A DNA stretch of 57,441 bases, taken from a virus (Duplodnaviria; Caudoviricetes). This document shows positions 30,276-57,441 of the stretch, piece by piece. The notes below the pieces were generated by a model. It did not search any database, was not told the DNA's origin, and saw only the letters and a program-made list of their open reading frames with translations. Each line of letters begins with the position of its first letter. Within the stretch, counting starts at the first letter, position 1. The translations under genes were made by a program, and so were the position numbers. The DNA lies in the IMG/VR virus record IMGVR_UViG_3300032267_000867, positions 1-57,441 of that record. One strand, 5' to 3'.

Positions 30276-30871
30276 CAGACGACGTTGCCCGTGTTAGAAC
30301 CGCCCGACTGCACGCCGCTGTGTTTGTGGGTCAGGAAGACCCGGCCATCAATCTTCACTCCGCCGCTATCAATCACGATTGAGTGCCCCCCGCAGGAAAG
30401 AGTGATGGACGATGGCGTTAGGGTTATCACGCTTGCACCGCTGTCGTCCTTGATGACGCAACCGTTTGGCCCTGTGATATTATAGGCGTTTGCGTCCACC
30501 GTTGGGAAGGACGTATTTGCGAGTGGAAAGAATACCAAGGCCGAAAGGTTGGGCGGTGGCTGGTTATAGGTCGCCGTGCCAGTGCCAAGCCCCGTAATGC
30601 CGTCGAGGTAGGCGTCAGCCGACATCACGAAGCCCTTGTCGCCCACCTGGGTCGGCGGGCGAGCGTAGCGTGAAATCGCTTGCGGCACCTCAATTTGCGG
30701 AAACGTGATCGGGCCGTTGAGTTCAAAATTGACCGTCACCATGCCCTTGTTCACCGCCACCACCGAAACCGGCAGCGCCTGTCCAAGCTGCTGGATTTGT
30801 GCGTCGATTTCGGTGCGGGTGTAATTGACGATGCCGCGAGCGAAAGGCGTGGTTTGTGAGTTATTGGCCAT
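30275..30871 (-). CDS. Baseplate central spike (gpV/gp138-like)
   Basis: OB-fold-like N-terminus, beta repeats, C-terminal THKHSGVQSG HxH apex. Confidence 0.8.
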   Translation of the reverse strand: MANNSQTTPFARGIVNYTRTEIDAQIQQLGQALPVSVVAVNKGMVTVNFELNGPITFPQIEVPQAISRYARPPTQVGDKGFVMSADAYLDGITGLGTGTATYNQPPPNLSALVFFPLANTSFPTVDANAYNITGPNGCVIKDDSGASVITLTPSSITLSCGGHSIVIDSGGVKIDGRVFLTHKHSGVQSGGSNTGNVV

Positions 30872-35805: not shown

Positions 35806-35822
35806 TTTGCGTTATCCTTCGC

Positions 35823-35892
35823 GTCCAAGGGGTAGGATGCAGCAGGCAGGTGGACTACTCCTGCTTTTCGGACCGTCGCCCTAGCTGCACCC
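35823..35892 (-). ncRNA. Candidate structured RNA (three-way junction with possible pseudoknot)
   Basis: P1 GGGUGCAGC/GCUGCAUCC, P2 GGGC/GUCC, GAAAA linker, P3 GCAGG/CCUGC; loop GUCCA is complementary to downstream UGGAC. Confidence 0.5.
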
Positions 35893-50628: not shown

Positions 50629-51992
50629 GATGGTATCTTTCCCTTGTGGTTAGGTTGATATTTTACGCGGGTTTCCGATTTTTGACCAGCCCGCTTCATC
50701 GCGGAAGCCATGGCGCGCTTCATTTTTGAGTGATCCGCGCTCTTGCGGTCGATCACGCGGCCAATCTGGTCTTCGCCTTCCGCCACGATCAAATGGCAGT
50801 CCACCGGTCGGGCTTGACCAAAGCGCCAGCATCGACGCACTGCCTGATACCATGCCTCGTAGCTAAAGCTGCGCCCGGCGAAAATCATCACGTTGCAATG
50901 CTGCCAGTTCATGCCAAAGCCCGCGACGGATGGCTTGGTGATCAGCACCCGGGCGGTGCCCGTGGCAAACGCCGTCAACCGATCTTCTTTTTGCCGGGCA
51001 TCCATGCTGCCGCGCACCTCGACGGCATCGGGAATCGCAGCACGCAATGCGTCGGCTTCATAATCGGTGTCGCACCACAACAGGCACGCGCCTTCGGTAG
51101 GCACAAGGCTGGCGCACATTGCGGCGCGGGCGTCGGCGGTTTGACGTTTAACGTCATGCAACGTAGTCGCGCTTACCTCCAGCGAGAATAGGGCGCCAGC
51201 GGGCGCGCGAACATCGCCCGCCGCCTTGTGGCGGAGGACGTTAAGCGGAGGCAGGATATATTCGCTGGCGTCGTGGCCCAGGTCCGCAGGCGTCTCTGCC
51301 ATCCGCGCCCACGACGCCATCCAATCCCAGAATTCTTGCTCGGCGTGTCGCTTGATCCGCCATTTCTGGCTGGCCTGTTCGGTGTCGTTGATAAAGAATC
51401 TGGTCAGCATCTCGGTGGACGACATGATGCCGAGAAACTCGGCGTGATTGCCAAGTTCCATGTGATCGTTTGGGGCTGGCGTTGCGGTTGCCGCCATGCG
51501 GAAACGCGCGCCGCTGAATGCCTCGATCAGACTGCGCGTGGTTTTGCCGGTAAAACTTTTTAGGATTGAGCTTTCGTCGAGAGCCACAGCACCAAACGCG
51601 GAGGGGTTCAGCGCATCAAGCATGTCGTAGTTGCAAACGTTGATGCCGGGACCGGCTTCGGATTGGCTGCGGATTTGCCGGGCTTGATACCCAAACCGAT
51701 CCGCCTCGCGGACGATCTGCGCTGCGACGGCAAGCGGCGTTAAAATCAGCGCCATGCCGTTGGTGGCAGCGGCGGCGTGGTGGCACCATTCAAGCTGAGT
51801 GAGTGTCTTTCCCAAGCCAGTGTCCAGAAAGCAGCCCCACCGGCCTTGGCGCAGCCCAAACGCCACGCAATCGGCTTGGTGCGGCTTAAGGGCCGGGTTG
51901 AGCTGCGGCACCACGTCCAGCCCGGAAGCGTGCGGGCGCGGCGCTTTGCTGGCCAAAAATTTTAGATATGTGGAGTTATCTCCATCGCTCAT
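50610..51992 (-). CDS. SNF2-like helicase/ATPase
   Basis: LDTGLGKT, LDESSILK, TATPAPND, QAVRRCWRFGQ. Confidence 0.88.
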   Translation of the reverse strand: MSDGDNSTYLKFLASKAPRPHASGLDVVPQLNPALKPHQADCVAFGLRQGRWGCFLDTGLGKTLTQLEWCHHAAAATNGMALILTPLAVAAQIVREADRFGYQARQIRSQSEAGPGINVCNYDMLDALNPSAFGAVALDESSILKSFTGKTTRSLIEAFSGARFRMAATATPAPNDHMELGNHAEFLGIMSSTEMLTRFFINDTEQASQKWRIKRHAEQEFWDWMASWARMAETPADLGHDASEYILPPLNVLRHKAAGDVRAPAGALFSLEVSATTLHDVKRQTADARAAMCASLVPTEGACLLWCDTDYEADALRAAIPDAVEVRGSMDARQKEDRLTAFATGTARVLITKPSVAGFGMNWQHCNVMIFAGRSFSYEAWYQAVRRCWRFGQARPVDCHLIVAEGEDQIGRVIDRKSADHSKMKRAMASAMKRAGQKSETRVKYQPNHKGKIPSWLFSA

Positions 51993-52064
51993 TGTGATTT
52001 CCTTTCCTGATGGGCCAATGGCCCATCGCTTTTTTACGGGATAATGTTTTTTGACGATAGGGGA

Positions 52065-53645
52065 TCACTCCCCGTCGCGCTTCTTTTTCTCAACCGTCAC
52101 ATGCACCAGGGTTTCCTGGGCGCGAGTGGCTGCAACATACATTAGGTTGCGCTCCTGGCCCTTCTGCCAATCTTGACGGGCGTAGAAGCTGGGTTGGTAG
52201 GCGTTGGCGCCCCACCAGATCACGCGCGGCCATTCCCGGCCCTTGCTTTTGTGGATGGTCGAAAGCGTGACCACCTTGGGGCGCTCGCCTGCGGGCGTGT
52301 CGCCAAACAGCTTGTTGATGGCAATCTCGACGCTGGAGATGTGCGCATCGTCGGGAAGCACGCTCATGATTTCAAACAGCGTGCTGGTTTGGTCCGCGAT
52401 TTTGTCGGCTTGTGCGTCCTGGCCGCGATCCGTGGCGCGGGCGATTTCCGCCCGTGACCACCGGCCCAGGCGGTCGCGCAGGTCTTCCACCGTGGTGGCG
52501 GTCTTCCACTTTTTGGCCAGCTTGATGAGGCCCAAGCCAATGTCGCGGCCCTCAATGATGCAGCCCTTGCCGCGCCGGATGAGGCTATAGGCGATTTCGA
52601 CCAGCGGCGCGGTGTTGCGGCAGAGGATTGCGTCGTTGGCGGTCAGCGTGACGTAGGTTGCCTCCCAGAATACTTTTTCGTCGATCCGCTTAACGCTGCC
52701 CTGGGCGGCGTTGGCGGCGGGCTGGATGTGCTGCACCCATTGGCGGGCTTCGGCCACCACCGCCTTGGGGCAGCGGTAGGAAACGGTCAGCGGCAGGGTG
52801 ATGGCGGAGAATTCGTCGCGGATGAGGCCAAGGCTATCGGAATCCGCGCCGGTGAAGCCGTAGATGGCTTGCGCGGGGTCGCCCACCGCAACCAAACGGC
52901 CACCGGGCGCGAGCAACTTGCTGGCCAGGGCGCGGCGGGTGGCGTTGGTGTCCTGCGCTTCGTCGATCAGCACCCAGTCAAACGGGCGGATGGTCAGGTT
53001 GCGCTGAATGGGCAGGTAAACCATGTCGTCGAAGTCAATCATTTCGTCGGCCATGTCGTTGCTGACGGTCAGCAATTCGGCGGCGGCGTCGATGCCCTCG
53101 CCAAGCGCGTAGCCATCGGGCAGCAGTTCGGCAATGGCGTGATGGGCGATCATGTCTTCCCATGCCTTGGTGTCGGCGATGCTGACCATCGCGCCGATGC
53201 CCGCCTGCTTGGCCATAGATGCCGTTTTGATGGCAAAGCTGTGCATGTCCATCGGCAGGCGCCTGTTTTGCGTCATGCGCTTGGCGATGGTGATCAACTT
53301 CTTGCCGTCTACCTTGGTTCGGGGGCAGATGGTGCGCAGGGCGGAAAAGCCAAAGCTATGCACCGTGCCGATGCGCACTCGGGCGCCGAGGTTGAGCGGC
53401 GCGGCCTTGATTGCAATCTCCTCCGCAATTTTCTTGTTGTAAGCCATGAAAGCCACGTCGCCGTTGGTGCGGTCGAGCAGGTTGATAAGGGTGGTGGTCT
53501 TGCCCGCACCTGCGACGGCTTCGATGACCGCGCTGCCGGTGCCATTGCTGGTCCAGTCATAAACCGCAATTTGCTGGGGCGAAGGTTGGTGCTTGGCTGC
53601 GGGAGCGGCCTGGGTGGCGGCGATGCGGGTGGGAAGCGGTGCCAT
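52065..53645 (-). CDS. UvrD/REP superfamily 1 helicase
   Basis: AVAGAGKT, IDEAQD, VGDPAQAIYGF, STIHKSKGRE, YVAATRA. Confidence 0.92.
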   Translation of the reverse strand: MAPLPTRIAATQAAPAAKHQPSPQQIAVYDWTSNGTGSAVIEAVAGAGKTTTLINLLDRTNGDVAFMAYNKKIAEEIAIKAAPLNLGARVRIGTVHSFGFSALRTICPRTKVDGKKLITIAKRMTQNRRLPMDMHSFAIKTASMAKQAGIGAMVSIADTKAWEDMIAHHAIAELLPDGYALGEGIDAAAELLTVSNDMADEMIDFDDMVYLPIQRNLTIRPFDWVLIDEAQDTNATRRALASKLLAPGGRLVAVGDPAQAIYGFTGADSDSLGLIRDEFSAITLPLTVSYRCPKAVVAEARQWVQHIQPAANAAQGSVKRIDEKVFWEATYVTLTANDAILCRNTAPLVEIAYSLIRRGKGCIIEGRDIGLGLIKLAKKWKTATTVEDLRDRLGRWSRAEIARATDRGQDAQADKIADQTSTLFEIMSVLPDDAHISSVEIAINKLFGDTPAGERPKVVTLSTIHKSKGREWPRVIWWGANAYQPSFYARQDWQKGQERNLMYVAATRAQETLVHVTVEKKKRDGE

Positions 53646-53651
53646 TTTTTA

Positions 53652-53718
53652 GTTCCTTTCTCTGCGGGGCATCATCGCCCCGCCCGATTTTTTTACAGGG
53701 TTTTTTTTACCGCGCCAA
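53652..53718 (-). promoter_or_regulatory. Promoter-hairpin-RBS cassette
   Basis: TTGGCG-N17-TAAAAA; GCGGGGC-GATGAT-GCCCCGC; AGAGAAAGGAAC. Confidence 0.65.
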
Positions 53719-53807
53719 CCCCCTTGTCCAATATTTTTTTGACGGGCGCGGATTTTTTAGGTGGGAAATACTTAACCGGATTCCGGTTAATTTTTGACGG
53801 CTTGCCG

Positions 53808-53897
53808 TCAGAGGTAGGCGTGGAGCAAATGGTTCACGCCCCAGGTGTATGCGGCCAAAAATGCGATGGCCAAAATGGTTCGGATCGTGCCGCGCAT
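53808..53897 (-). CDS. Small hydrophobic peptide (29 aa)
   Basis: MRGTIRTILAIAFLAAYTWGVNHLLHAYL; GAAAGGAA RBS. Confidence 0.5.
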   Translation of the reverse strand: MRGTIRTILAIAFLAAYTWGVNHLLHAYL

Positions 53898-53911
53898 TTG
53901 ATTGATTCCTT

Positions 53912-54205
53912 TCAGGCGATAATGGCGAAGGCGGAAGCGACGCTGGACACGCTGCCTGCTCCTGAGAGCGCATCGCTTGCAGCCCCGTAAAGATCGCCGC
54001 GCCCAATGTGGCCGCAGAACGAAACCACCCACCCATCTGCGTCAGTGCGGGCGATGACGGTCTTGCCGTCGGCTTCGACGCGGAGCAGGCGATGCCCGTT
54101 CATCTCGACCACCACCAGGGTTCCAAAGGTTCCGGAATCTGTCCCATCCCGCAAAAAGCAGTTGATGATGGTCTCGATTTTTTCAGCGGTGTTGATGTTG
54201 AACAT
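53912..54205 (-). CDS. Hypothetical early protein downstream of the hammerhead
   Basis: AGAGAAAGGA RBS. Confidence 0.7.
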   Translation of the reverse strand: MFNINTAEKIETIINCFLRDGTDSGTFGTLVVVEMNGHRLLRVEADGKTVIARTDADGWVVSFCGHIGRGDLYGAASDALSGAGSVSSVASAFAIIA

Positions 54206-54222
54206 TTTGAATTCCTTTCTCT

Positions 54223-54288
54223 GGCTGGCTCATCAGCGCCGGGTTGCCGCCCGGCGGACCATTGGGGCCGAGGCCCCTAGGTTTCGCC
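54223..54288 (-). ncRNA. Hammerhead ribozyme, type II
   Basis: GGC-GAAA-CC...G-GUC^-CGCCGGG-CGGCAA-CCCGGCG-CUGAUGA-GCC: complete catalytic core, three stems, GUC cleavage triplet, and a possible loop I / 3' tail pseudoknot (GGC/GCC). Confidence 0.9.
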
Positions 54289-54699
54289 TTAAAAATATGA
54301 TTGCATCATCGGGGAAAGGTCGTCGATGTTTCCGCCGTTGCGGAGGTAATCCATGGCCGGGGCGATCTCGGCGGCTTCGAAGGCGCTGTAAGCCTCTGAA
54401 CCATAAACCGGGGCGCCTTCGTTCCAGCGATCCCGATCCAGCTTGCCGCCCGCCTTGAGATGAGCATCCACCCGATCCGCCAGAGCCTGCGCCTTATCCT
54501 GCGCGCCTTCGACGCGGCGATAAAACCGCTCGCCATCTTCGTGGCAAGCCAGGGCCACGCTGGGAAATGAAACCTCGTGACGGAAGCGACGGCCCTTAGC
54601 GGTTTGAACCTCAACAAAAAACCGCTCGTGATATTCGGGTTCGGGAAAGTCAAAAGATGGAACCGCGAAAAGATCGGAAACCACTGAAACTTCAACCAT
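54289..54699 (-). CDS. Hypothetical early protein
   Basis: GGAGAG RBS, own promoter; PVYGSEAY motif. Confidence 0.75.
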   Translation of the reverse strand: MVEVSVVSDLFAVPSFDFPEPEYHERFFVEVQTAKGRRFRHEVSFPSVALACHEDGERFYRRVEGAQDKAQALADRVDAHLKAGGKLDRDRWNEGAPVYGSEAYSAFEAAEIAPAMDYLRNGGNIDDLSPMMQSYF

Positions 54700-54702
54700 T
54701 TT

Positions 54703-54783
54703 CTCTCTCCGTTTCTCTGCGGCGCCTCATCGCGCCGTCAAAAATGTTTTAACGGGTTTCCTCAAAAAAGAAAATAGCCTTTC
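54703..54783 (-). promoter_or_regulatory. Promoter-hairpin-RBS cassette
   Basis: 20-mer shared with 11299-11318; TAAAAC -10; CGGCGC-GATGAG-GCGCCG hairpin. Confidence 0.6.
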
Positions 54784-54798
54784 GCCAATTTTCTTGAT

Positions 54799-55464
54799 TT
54801 ATTTTCGCATCCGGCCCCGCACCATCGTAAGCAGTTCCAGCTTGGTTTTGTTCCGCAGGGAATTTTGAAGCGATGCCACAGCGCGCTCCTCCGCTTCCGT
54901 CATGTTCAAGCCAAGCCTGGGCAGGCGGGGCTTTTCGACCATCTCAATCGCGCACTGCACCGCCTCGCGGGGCTGATAGACAATTGGCTTCAACTCCCCG
55001 GCGTCGCGGGCGTTGTTGCACAAGCGTTCGATGGCGCCTTTGCTCCGCCCCATTTTCTGTCCGATGGCGGGATATGAGAATCCGCGCTTGCGCAGTCCCA
55101 GGATGACCGTTCGTTCTTCGTCGGTGATAGGCTTGAGGTTTCGAGTCAAGATGTTTTGTACCTCGCCTTTGACGATCATGCGGGCGCGAACGTGCCCAAC
55201 GAGGCGGGCCGACACTCCCAGGTTTGCGGCGATCACCACCGGCATTTCGGTGGGGCTGTTGCGGATGGCTTCGTAAATTTCCGGATGCGCGATTCCGCTT
55301 TTGTCTGAGATGCTTTTCACGACGCCTGCTTTGATCATTCGGGCGCGAACGTGCCCGACGGTTTTGGCGGAAAACCCTAGGCGTGCCGCCATGGAGGCGG
55401 GCAATTCGTTCGGGCAGCGCCGAATTTCGTCATAGATTTCGGGATATTTGAGGGGCGTGGTCAT
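54799..55464 (-). CDS. Multi-HTH DNA-binding protein
   Basis: Two ~55-aa repeats (PEIY.....VGHVRARM) plus a third HTH, FSYPAIGQKMGRSKGAI. Confidence 0.7.
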   Translation of the reverse strand: MTTPLKYPEIYDEIRRCPNELPASMAARLGFSAKTVGHVRARMIKAGVVKSISDKSGIAHPEIYEAIRNSPTEMPVVIAANLGVSARLVGHVRARMIVKGEVQNILTRNLKPITDEERTVILGLRKRGFSYPAIGQKMGRSKGAIERLCNNARDAGELKPIVYQPREAVQCAIEMVEKPRLPRLGLNMTEAEERAVASLQNSLRNKTKLELLTMVRGRMRK

Positions 55465-55673
55465 TGGGAATTCTTTTTGCGTGGGTCGGGAATGAAGGTG
55501 GGCGGCGGGTTGGCTGCGCGGGCGATAAGCCAGTGCAGCAGGGGCGGCGGTGGCCGGGCGCTACCATTTATCCACCGACGGAACGCACTCTTGCTGCGTC
55601 CGGTCGCTTTAGCCAACCACGCCACCGATACTCCGGTGGCGTCGAGGGCGTCGCGAAATTCCTGGCCGCTCAT
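55461..55673 (-). CDS. Small HTH protein
   Basis: FRDALDATGVSVAWLAKATGRSKSAFRRWING. Confidence 0.7.
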   Translation of the reverse strand: MSGQEFRDALDATGVSVAWLAKATGRSKSAFRRWINGSARPPPPLLHWLIARAANPPPTFIPDPRKKNSQ

Positions 55674-55987
55674 TCTGCGGCTCCTTCCAGGGCGTCGATG
55701 ATGCTCTGCACGTCGATGTCATCCAGGGCGCTGATCAGGTCGTCAATGCCACTGGTGGCTTCCGCCATGTTGCTGATGGCGGATTCCATGGCTTGGCCAC
55801 GGTCATTGGCCTGCGCGCCTTCGGAGAGCGCGCCGAAAGCATCTTGCTCTTCGTCGCAAGCGGTCTCGATTTCGTCGCGCAGGTTGGAAAGCTCGTCGGT
55901 CAACGCCTTCACATCCTCGATTTCCTCCATGATTTCGGACAGGCGCTTGGTCACTGCGCCCAGAATTTTGCGGCGTGCTTTGTTCAT
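55670..55987 (-). CDS. Acidic helical phage protein
   Basis: Start MNKARRK at 55987, GGAG RBS; DEEQDAF...RGQAM. Confidence 0.75.
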   Translation of the reverse strand: MNKARRKILGAVTKRLSEIMEEIEDVKALTDELSNLRDEIETACDEEQDAFGALSEGAQANDRGQAMESAISNMAEATSGIDDLISALDDIDVQSIIDALEGAAE

Positions 55988-56076
55988 TTTCTTTCTCCAT
56001 GTTGCCGGGCGGTTGATTCCACCCGGTCGCTTGATGCGCCTCCGTGTGGGGCGGCGCATCCGGTGACCGGTCGGGG

Positions 56077-56280
56077 TTAGTGGCGGGGCTGGCGGCGGGG
56101 CGGGCCTTCGGGCAGCCCCAGCACGTCCCACTCGCGGGTGGGGCGGGCGTAGGCGACGTAGCCCATGCGCTCGGTGGCTTCCGCCATGGTGTTGGCGGCT
56201 TCCAGCGTGGCGACGGGAAGGCACTTCCGCCATTCGCCCGCCTGGGTTCCGCCGATGTAGTAGATCACGGTGTAGGTCAT
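56077..56280 (-). CDS. Hypothetical early protein
   Basis: Start MTYTVIYYIGG at 56280, AAGGA RBS. Confidence 0.65.
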   Translation of the reverse strand: MTYTVIYYIGGTQAGEWRKCLPVATLEAANTMAEATERMGYVAYARPTREWDVLGLPEGPPRRQPRH

Positions 56281-56284
56281 CGCT

Positions 56285-56434
56285 TTACGCATCCTTCTTT
56301 TTGGGAGTGGTCAGGAGCAGCCCGTTGCGCTCAAGCCACGCTTTGCGGTTGGCCAGCATCTGGTCGATGGTGGTCGGCATCTTGCTGATGGCGGCTTCGA
56401 CTTCGGCCTTGGTCATTGTGTGCTTCATGCTCAT
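56285..56434 (-). CDS. Hypothetical early protein (49 aa)
   Basis: Start MSMKHT at 56434 after a GGAAAGGAAC RBS. Confidence 0.6.
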   Translation of the reverse strand: MSMKHTMTKAEVEAAISKMPTTIDQMLANRKAWLERNGLLLTTPKKKDA

Positions 56435-56441
56435 CGTCCTA

Positions 56442-56513
56442 GTTCCTTTCCTGCGGCGGTCGGTTGATCCCGCCGCCTGCACCCTTTTTAATGCTCATCA
56501 AAAAACGATGCAA
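56442..56513 (-). promoter_or_regulatory. Promoter-hairpin-RBS cassette
   Basis: TTGCAT-N17-TAAAAA; GCGGCGG/CCGCCGC hairpin; GGAAAGGAAC. Confidence 0.7.
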
Positions 56514-56631
56514 CCCAAAAAGCGCCCATAGGACAAATTATTTTACAATCGCCAGGAACGCCACCAGAGGCCCGCCAGCGGCTTTAAGGCGTTCTCAAGG
56601 GATCATCTGCCGCCCAGGCTCCAGACCGCCT

Positions 56632-56907
56632 TCAGCGGTCATAGATGGTTGGATACATGCCCACCTTCTCGGCAATCCACACACCAAGGATGGTGCCTGC
56701 AACATCTCTGTCAGCCGGTTCAAAGCACGACACATAAGCATCAATCGCGTTCGCCAGCATGCTGCCGACAAATGCGTTCGAGTCATCCTCCCCAAACAAA
56801 TCAAAGGCTGCACTTGCGGCCCTATACATCGCCTCGTGAACCCTCTCCCTTTCCGGTGATGCCATCCGGAGTTTGGATTCCAGCCGTGATCGTGTTTCTG
56901 CGTCCAT
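56632..56907 (-). CDS. Hypothetical protein
   Basis: AGGAGAG RBS. Confidence 0.65.
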   Translation of the reverse strand: MDAETRSRLESKLRMASPERERVHEAMYRAASAAFDLFGEDDSNAFVGSMLANAIDAYVSCFEPADRDVAGTILGVWIAEKVGMYPTIYDR

Positions 56908-56937
56908 TTTCTCTCTCCTGTAAAAAAAACATTGACT

Positions 56938-57182
56938 TGCTAAATTGCTTGCTAAGTTAGGTGGGGGCTAAGTGCTTGTGCTTGCTTGCTTTTTTCTCTA
57001 ATTTAACAACTTAACAATTTAGCATAAGGGGGGGGGGTAAACCGGAACCATCGCGCGTGATGGAAATCATGTGACACGCGATACGTATAAACCCCTTCCA
57101 TATGCTAAATTGCTAAATTGCTAAACCGAGTGTTTTCAAGCACTTACCAGTGCTAAGTTAGGCAATTTAGCATTGCTAAATT
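56938..57182. repeat. Putative replication origin with TGCTAA(A/G)T 8-mer iterons
   Basis: Copies at 56938, 56950, 57103, 57111, 57119, 57151 and 57174; inverted copies at 57016 and 57164 plus degenerate ones at 57000 and 57008; AT-rich; directly downstream of the primase-helicase. Confidence 0.7.
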
Positions 57183-57189
57183 CAATCCA

Positions 57190-57441
57190 TCAATCGGCAA
57201 ATGATGTCGATAGCTGGTATTTGATGGTTTTGGGTCCGGGCTTGTTTTTGTCCGACTCCACCGCCACCACCTTGCCCATCCGGACTAGATCGTCCAGCAC
57301 CTCGGCGCGCTCTTTGGGATTCAGGCCCAGGCTGTGCCGACGCATCATCGCATCAGCCGTTAGCGGCCCGTGCTTGCGGATGATGTTTAGCGCCTTCTGA
57401 ATTTTGCGCTCGTAATCGGTGTCTGCGACGTGCATCCCGGC
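57190..57441 (-). CDS. Primase-helicase, C-terminal wHTH-like part
   Basis: Same frame as 2217..1 across the circular junction; stop at 57190. Confidence 0.8.
   Translation of the reverse strand, partial: AGMHVADTDYERKIQKALNIIRKHGPLTADAMMRRHSLGLNPKERAEVLDDLVRMGKVVAVESDKNKPGPKTIKYQLSTSFAD
57319..57441. repeat. Terminal direct repeat, copy 2
   Basis: Identical to 1-123. Confidence 0.95.

Follow-up and report, generated by a model that had tools for sequence, protein, structure and literature searches.

The window, the whole 57,441-nt stretch analyzed here, corresponds to a virus record of 57.4 kb that is complete and carries direct repeats at its termini. The long open reading frames (ORFs), which were taken as genes, all lie on the minus strand. 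In its structural genes the virus is similar to contractile-tailed phages, and its portal is only about 50% identical to those of the nearest named phages. The part from 57.4 kb down to ~49 kb contains small ORFs and genes for a methyltransferase, helicases and helix-turn-helix proteins. As this part also precedes the terminase gene, it can reasonably be called the "early region". Three consecutive ORFs of this region, of 136, 97 and 29 aa, are considered here (Table 1), the last of them hydrophobic and preceded by its own Shine-Dalgarno sequence. Comparison with PHROG, Pfam and PADLOC gave no family for the ORFs of 136 and 97 aa, and a search of viral contigs gave no relative of the 136-aa protein. 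At the DNA level, the part of the window between 53000 and 55500 had no match among named phage records. The stop codon of the 136-aa ORF is followed by a gap of 83 nt, taken up by a putative type II hammerhead ribozyme and by the Shine-Dalgarno sequence of the 97-aa gene.

Table 1. Features of the predicted hammerhead and its surroundings; positions are those of the window.
Feature	Position	Strand	Remark
Leader of the 136-aa ORF	54700..54737	-	GC hairpin CGGCGC/GCGCCG, then AGAGAAACGGAGAG
136-aa ORF (upstream)	54289..54699	-	ORF listing; no family match
TAA stop of the 136-aa ORF	54291-54289	-	Abuts the predicted ribozyme; read from sequence
Predicted type II hammerhead ribozyme	54219..54289	-	Span matched by Rfam RF02276, with all 66 model positions (1-66) covered
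Stem II, 5' strand GGC	54288-54286	-	Pairs with GCC 54229-54227
Core strand GAAA	54285-54282	-	
Stem III hairpin	54282-54258	-	Sequence and fold
Predicted scissile bond, C17 (54257) / C1.1 (54256)	54256..54257	-	Sequence; GUC^ position from the Rfam alignment
Stem I hairpin, 7 bp	54256-54250, 54243-54237	-	CGCCGGG with CCCGGCG; loop CGGCAA 54249-54244
Catalytic core CUGAUGA	54236-54230	-	Sequence and Rfam alignment
Stem II, 3' strand GCC	54229-54227	-	Then A, then GCC 54225-54223
Pseudoknot partner GCC	54225-54223	-	Complementary to loop I GGC 54248-54246
Shine-Dalgarno AGAGAAAGGAA of the 97-aa gene	54222-54212	-	Kept along with the ribozyme in relatives
ATG of the 97-aa ORF	54205-54203	-	
97-aa ORF (downstream)	53912..54205	-	ORF listing; no family match
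29-aa hydrophobic ORF	53808..53897	-	Own GAAAGGAAT Shine-Dalgarno at 53913-53905
Leader of the helicase gene	53653..53683	-	Hairpin GCGGGGC/GCCCCGC, then AGAGAAAGGAA; architecture compared earlier with the ribozyme product
Shine-Dalgarno 5' ends of recurring leaders	11257, 52007, 53661, 54718, 56451	-	

The original prediction, made by reading the sequence, had placed a type II hammerhead between a stop codon and the next ribosome-binding site, and had put forward a covariance search with the Rfam type II hammerhead model as a check. The stop and start codons that enclose the element were confirmed in the sequence. The covariance search matched RF02276 (Hammerhead_II) over the full length of the model with 39.4 bits, above the gathering score of 37. 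The corresponding E-value, 1.5e-4, is that of a search of the whole window, on both strands, with 4227 Rfam families; when Hammerhead_II was searched as a single family, the window gave E = 3.4e-8, and the same single-family search had no match in 14 control genomes. A permissive Rfam scan (E up to 1) returned no second ribozyme in the window. A chance match was rejected in view of the Rfam score and E-values and because the element is conserved in relatives, as described below.

All the features needed for self-cleavage are present in the sequence. The core strand C3-U4-G5-A6-N7-G8-A9 is read as CUGAUGA, and G12-A13-A14, the A15.1-U16.1 pair (A54282-U54258), C54257 at H17 and the G10.1-C11.1 pair (G54229 with C54286) are all found; the core is thus complete, as had been claimed, both by direct reading and in the Rfam alignment. 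Three helices surround it: stem I with 7 bp, stem II with 3 bp and stem III with 3 bp + 5 bp. In stem III, the pairs A54282-U54258, C54281-G54259 and C54280-G54260 are separated by a 2x3 internal loop from GGGGC/GCCCC, which is closed by the loop CUCG. Stems I and III each end in a loop and stem II is open, which is the type II topology, according to both the order of the elements and the Rfam alignment. The predicted cleavage site, between 54257 and 54256, is correctly placed with respect to sequence and alignment. The GGC of loop I and the GCC of the 3' tail, proposed to pair with each other, are indeed complementary, giving a pseudoknot of three pairs, all of them G-C; four or more pairs are found in most members of the class according to Perreault et al. 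(2011; PMC3088659). The minimum free energy calculated for the 96 nt is unremarkable (z = -1.28; an equal or better fold is reached by 18 of 200 shuffles), so that the support for the element comes from the covariance model and the relatives and not from its stability. The element is very probably a type II hammerhead ribozyme. It is an ordinary example of an already described ribozyme class, at its usual phage location, and not a new kind of element.

Natural type II hammerheads of bacteria and prophages, with a pseudoknot between loop I and the 3' tail, were described by Perreault et al. (2011; PMC3088659). In that description, arrays of hammerheads flank single prophage genes, cleavage occurs in vitro and in E. 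coli, and long phage transcripts are proposed to be processed into gene-length mRNAs. The window copy shares with the RF02276 class the core, the topology and the setting among co-directional small genes of phage origin, and its predicted pseudoknot likewise joins loop I to the 3' tail. The differences are matters of detail: this pseudoknot has only 3 bp, stem III contains a 2x3 internal loop, and stem II is one nucleotide longer than the model consensus. In Desulfovibrio vulgaris, in vivo cleavage is reported for three type II hammerheads located close to phage-like genes (Olzog et al. 2021; PMC8782182). These are of the same type as the window copy and, as described there, also lie beside hypothetical and phage-like genes; two of them are close together, as in many of the phage loci found here. 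They belong, however, to chromosomal prophage-like loci and their cleavage is proven, whereas the window copy, for which cleavage is predicted, comes from the genome of a free phage that has terminal repeats. The idea that the cut releases a separate mRNA whose stability is its own is plausible, but it is the hypothesis already published for the class and not new here. As restated in a 2019 review (PMC6765202), processing into messages of differing stability is unproven, and the role of thousands of hammerheads from bacteria and phages is open; no later functional study of phage hammerheads was found in the open-access literature.

The surroundings of this class were surveyed in viral contigs with a pattern in which only the core, stem II and the tail were fixed, stems I and III being left free. 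It gave 120 matches in 84 stretches, corresponding to 98 unique copies, often with two to five per phage; the copies are not independent of one another, as 23 of 92 downstream genes share one PHROG family. In 69/98 copies, the stop codon of an ORF (minimum length 40 aa) is located 0-15 nt upstream, compared with 187/1960 random positions in the same loci. A Shine-Dalgarno sequence with a start codon lies at most 40 nt downstream in 84/98 copies (409/1960 random positions), at a median distance of 21 nt, and 60 of the 98 copies have both the upstream stop and the downstream Shine-Dalgarno sequence with start. The stop codon is often very close: it ends 0-5 nt before GGCGAAAC in 52 of the 98 copies, the distance being 0 nt in the window.

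The two stems that the pattern had left free are nevertheless formed in most of the copies. At least 5 consecutive pairs are possible in stem I for 89 of 102 distinct copies (141/5100 shuffles), and at least 4 consecutive pairs in stem III for 81 of the 102 (168/5100 shuffles); the stem I arms are of 39 different sequences. A pseudoknot of at least 4 pairs is found in 79/102 copies, against 1450/5100 shuffled loops; in 23/102, the best pseudoknot has 3 bp. The flanking genes are small: those that follow have a median length of 97 aa, and among 93 complete ORFs, 84 do not exceed 150 aa. Only 4/92 downstream proteins fall in a PHROG family with a named function (one DNA ligase, two tail proteins and one anti-restriction protein), the others belonging to families of unknown function or to none, and no function shared among the 92 emerged from the PHROG comparison. 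The window copy is a typical member of a large phage class. The densest groups seen in the survey comprise four or five type II hammerheads within 1.3-4.2 kb, on the contigs L087 (5006-9186), L025 (12628-13933) and L062 (2558-4514); each copy in these groups sits between small genes, and stem I is nearly identical within one phage.

Closer relatives of the window, a small set of contigs, were gathered by searches with the neighboring helicase and with the 97-aa protein. The hammerhead lies in a hypervariable slot between a conserved leader (about 54800-54697) and a pre-helicase region (about 53800-53600). When 53600-54800 of the window was compared with L002, L003, L004, L007 and L098, five different gene contents were found in this slot. 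In the window it holds the 136-aa ORF, the hammerhead, the 97-aa ORF and the 29-aa ORF. L003 has a 65-aa ORF, a hammerhead (42.5 bits) and a 29-aa ORF, and lacks the 97-aa gene; a homologue of the 29-aa ORF of the window thus comes directly after the ribozyme. In L004 and L007, the slot contains two unrelated genes without a hammerhead. In L098 it is empty, and a hammerhead (42.8 bits) is found ~2.5 kb further upstream, between ORFs of 121 and 90 aa. In L002 (= L008), only the 5' half of the hammerhead is left: ~30 nt are deleted, CUGAUGA is gone, and an extended upstream ORF overlaps the remnant. The 97-aa gene is kept there together with its Shine-Dalgarno sequence, its product being 88% identical to that of the window. 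Another relative, complete at 59.8 kb and bounded by terminal repeats, lacks a hammerhead altogether. L098 (58,913 bases) is a near-complete relative, with a 94% identical helicase, placed in a genome bin labeled Candidatus Limnocylindrus; as this contig is as long as the whole phage, the host assignment is doubtful and may be a binning accident.

The three intact copies (window, L003 and L098) are 92-94% identical over ~80 nt, which correspond to the ribozyme and the Shine-Dalgarno sequence, and their flanks are unrelated; the homology of the window with L003 and L098 stops at about 54211-54213. Changes between the window and the other two are confined to loops and unpaired positions, the core being intact in all three. 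The stem III hairpin is also kept in L003, L098 and the L002 remnant. The pseudoknot has 3 bp in the window copy, whereas L003 and L098 have one of 5 bp. Direct repeats of GAAAGGAAT lie on either side of the 97-aa gene, and L003 looks like the product of a deletion between them. Five more copies came from a metagenome scan with the 5' half of this lineage, in which only those remnants that keep the 5' half could be caught: among them, one is intact, one has a changed core and two (L106 and L107) are without the 3' half. The contig L109 carries two copies 545 nt apart, at 818-892 and 1363-1430. The first is the intact one just mentioned (44.6 bits), and its pseudoknot, GGUU:AACC, is compensatory relative to GGC:GCC; the second has CCGAAGA where the CUGANGA core is expected. 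The ribozyme is thus conserved as an RNA, yet accessory and relocatable in this phage group. It is regarded as accessory, and not essential, because its position varies, because it is half deleted in L002 and because it is absent from the complete relative.

The preferred reading of the locus, to which a probability of roughly 0.6 is given, is that a genuine hammerhead is part of a small replaceable early cassette (leader, 136-aa ORF, hammerhead, 97-aa ORF and 29-aa ORF) and that its cut uncouples the mRNAs. The RNA would fold during transcription, with stems I and III as hairpins, stem II as an open helix of 3 bp and loop I joined to the 3' tail in the pseudoknot. It would then cut itself between C54257 and C54256, presumably co-transcriptionally, as expected from its class. 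As the topology and the folds suggest, the stem III hairpin, bearing a 2',3'-cyclic phosphate, would form the 3' end of the upstream mRNA. The stem I hairpin would give the downstream mRNA a 5'-OH start, and the Shine-Dalgarno sequence, left free, would come 14 nt after this hairpin. One transcript would in this way give two hairpin-capped mRNAs, whose stability and translation would be uncoupled. When the predicted products are folded, stem III is found at the 3' end of one and stem I at the 5' end of the other, and the Shine-Dalgarno sequence is unpaired. The expected start of the 3' product, a 7-bp GC hairpin and then the ribosome-binding site, is reproduced in these model folds as stem I followed by AGAGAAAGGAA.

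Terminal hairpins protect bacterial mRNAs from end-dependent RNases, so that two separately stabilized mRNAs are a reasonable reading of the product folds. The effect of the 5'-OH end, for its part, depends on the RNases of the host. On the whole of this analysis, the window copy likely cleaves in vivo; that the benefit lies in uncoupling the fate of the mRNAs is about an even call. The short pseudoknot and the loss of the ribozyme in relatives count against a strong role. In addition, the L002 sequence, in which the 97-aa gene has kept its Shine-Dalgarno sequence despite the half-deleted hammerhead, weakens the reading that the ribozyme is essential.

Several known systems resemble parts of this arrangement. 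The glmS ribozyme of Gram-positive bacteria cuts itself within the leader of an mRNA, and the resulting 5'-OH decides the fate of the downstream message. This ribozyme requires a metabolite cofactor and its 5'-OH product is degraded, cleavage therefore turning expression off. At the phage locus, on the contrary, no ligand is implied, and the 5' end is in a hairpin that is expected to protect the message. RiboJ is a synthetic insulator that goes back to the hammerhead of a satellite RNA. It is positioned ahead of a ribosome-binding site; once the upstream RNA has been cut off, a hairpin remains and the ribosome-binding site is free. The predicted products of the window copy would share this outcome, but RiboJ is engineered and has another topology, whereas the window copy is natural and lies between two cistrons. 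In T4-type phages, cassettes of promoters and stem-loops have been proposed to shuffle early genes. As in the modules seen here, in which a hairpin or hammerhead is followed by a Shine-Dalgarno sequence, short conserved elements flank variable early genes and mark mosaic junctions. The T4-type elements are promoters with hairpins and without a ribozyme, unlike the hammerhead module.

Another explanation is that the ~80-nt linker of hammerhead and Shine-Dalgarno sequence, which may well cleave, is mainly a passenger that spreads among early cassettes by short-homology recombination with little or no benefit. The same ribozyme is indeed met between unrelated pairs of ORFs (136/97 aa in the window, 65/29 aa in L003 and 121/90 aa in L098), and at another place of the early region in the last of these. 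The GAAAGGAAT repeats around the 97-aa gene, with L003 as the apparent deletion product, and the remnants or absence in other relatives fit this explanation as well. Against it stand the intact catalytic core of all three full copies, which differ in loops only, and the compensatory pseudoknot change of the first L109 copy. Class-wide, the stems co-vary and the pseudoknot is kept, a sign that selection acts on the way the RNA folds and not just on the DNA as a linker. A mere passenger is considered unlikely.

The window copy could also be slow or decaying, on its way to loss and without a present role. It scores lowest of the three intact copies, and its pseudoknot is down to 3 bp; in one type II construct, cleavage was measured to be ~20-fold slower when the pseudoknot was cut down from 6 to 4 bp, and >100-fold slower when only 2 bp were left (Perreault et al. 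2011; PMC3088659). Decay can be seen elsewhere, in the missing 3' halves of L002, L106 and L107 and in the altered core of the second L109 copy. The window copy, on the contrary, has all core positions and the three stems intact. Its 3-bp pseudoknot is shared as the best pairing by nearly a quarter of the class copies (23/102), and its three pairs are all G-C. Such a state of decay is quite improbable for the window copy. That a terminating ribosome would unfold stems II and III, so that the RNA would be cut only when the upstream cistron is untranslated, is the least probable of the alternatives and very unlikely: the closeness of the stop codon to GGCGAAAC, with no nucleotide between them in the window, and the narrow range of the downstream Shine-Dalgarno distance agree with it, but such tight spacing may only reflect the compactness of phage genomes.

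A broader and rather speculative proposal, to which only a low probability is given, is that the unit under selection is a portable module of stop codon, hammerhead and Shine-Dalgarno sequence, which would yield two hairpin-protected products by a translation-gated cut and would be moved between early-gene cassettes by recombination at its Shine-Dalgarno sequence. Owing to the type II topology, each product would receive one protective terminal hairpin, the upstream mRNA having stem III at its 3' end and the downstream mRNA stem I at its 5' end; translation of the upstream gene would control the cut because the stop codon abuts stem II. If true, this would be a natural mobile intercistronic insulator, by which phages could plug in new early genes with predictable expression. 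The window copy adds no new principle. It is a compact natural test case, with a single ribozyme in a small early cassette, for which the relatives supply natural variants: the same ribozyme between other genes, relocated, half deleted or absent. The class figures, a stop codon a few nt upstream and a start codon ~21 nt downstream, give the processing hypothesis a concrete, testable form.

The original prediction had further likened the 5' end of the ribozyme product to that made by the early promoters of this phage. Recurring leaders, at least five in the window, consist of an A-rich run, a GC-rich hairpin and (A/G)GAAAGGAA, or a close variant, 1-2 nt further on. The part of the comparison concerning a GC hairpin followed by a Shine-Dalgarno sequence of the GAAAGGAA type therefore stands. 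The spacing between the two differs, with 14 nt in the predicted ribozyme product versus 1-2 nt in the leaders, and the putative early promoters were not picked up by a scan for sigma-70-type promoters in 51900-57441 (0 sites). In the same interval, 6 terminator-like sites were counted, versus 8.2 expected. Two of the leaders (53664-53683 and 52008-52028) read on the plus strand as terminator-like hairpins followed by a T run.

The ribosome-binding site of the 97-aa gene had also been named as the target of a candidate sRNA. With up to 2 mismatches, the complement of its Shine-Dalgarno sequence occurs at 11 sites versus 7.7 expected, a number reached by 20 of 100 shuffles and thus no excess over chance. 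None of these complements lies within an evident non-coding transcript, and those on the plus strand are nothing but Shine-Dalgarno sequences read from the other strand. Among known RNAs, an int-alpA RNA (Rfam RF02996) has a full-length match at 35822-35891 (minus strand) with 49.6 bits, compared with a cut-off of 35.8. It follows a 148-aa ORF after the tail sheath gene and precedes the tape-measure region, and is thus located in the structural module, with no adjoining integrase. As an sRNA directed at the ribosome-binding site it was rejected, as it holds no Shine-Dalgarno complement. The F6 TB sRNA family has a sub-threshold match at 30584-30639 (minus strand; 33.7 bits versus 46, E 0.029), probably due to chance. 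Exact copies of ATTTAGCA number six in the window (1.1 expected by chance), and every one of them, on one strand or the other, falls within the same 244 nt (56938-57181), between the first two ORFs where the early region has its left end, in what looks like an operator or iteron array.
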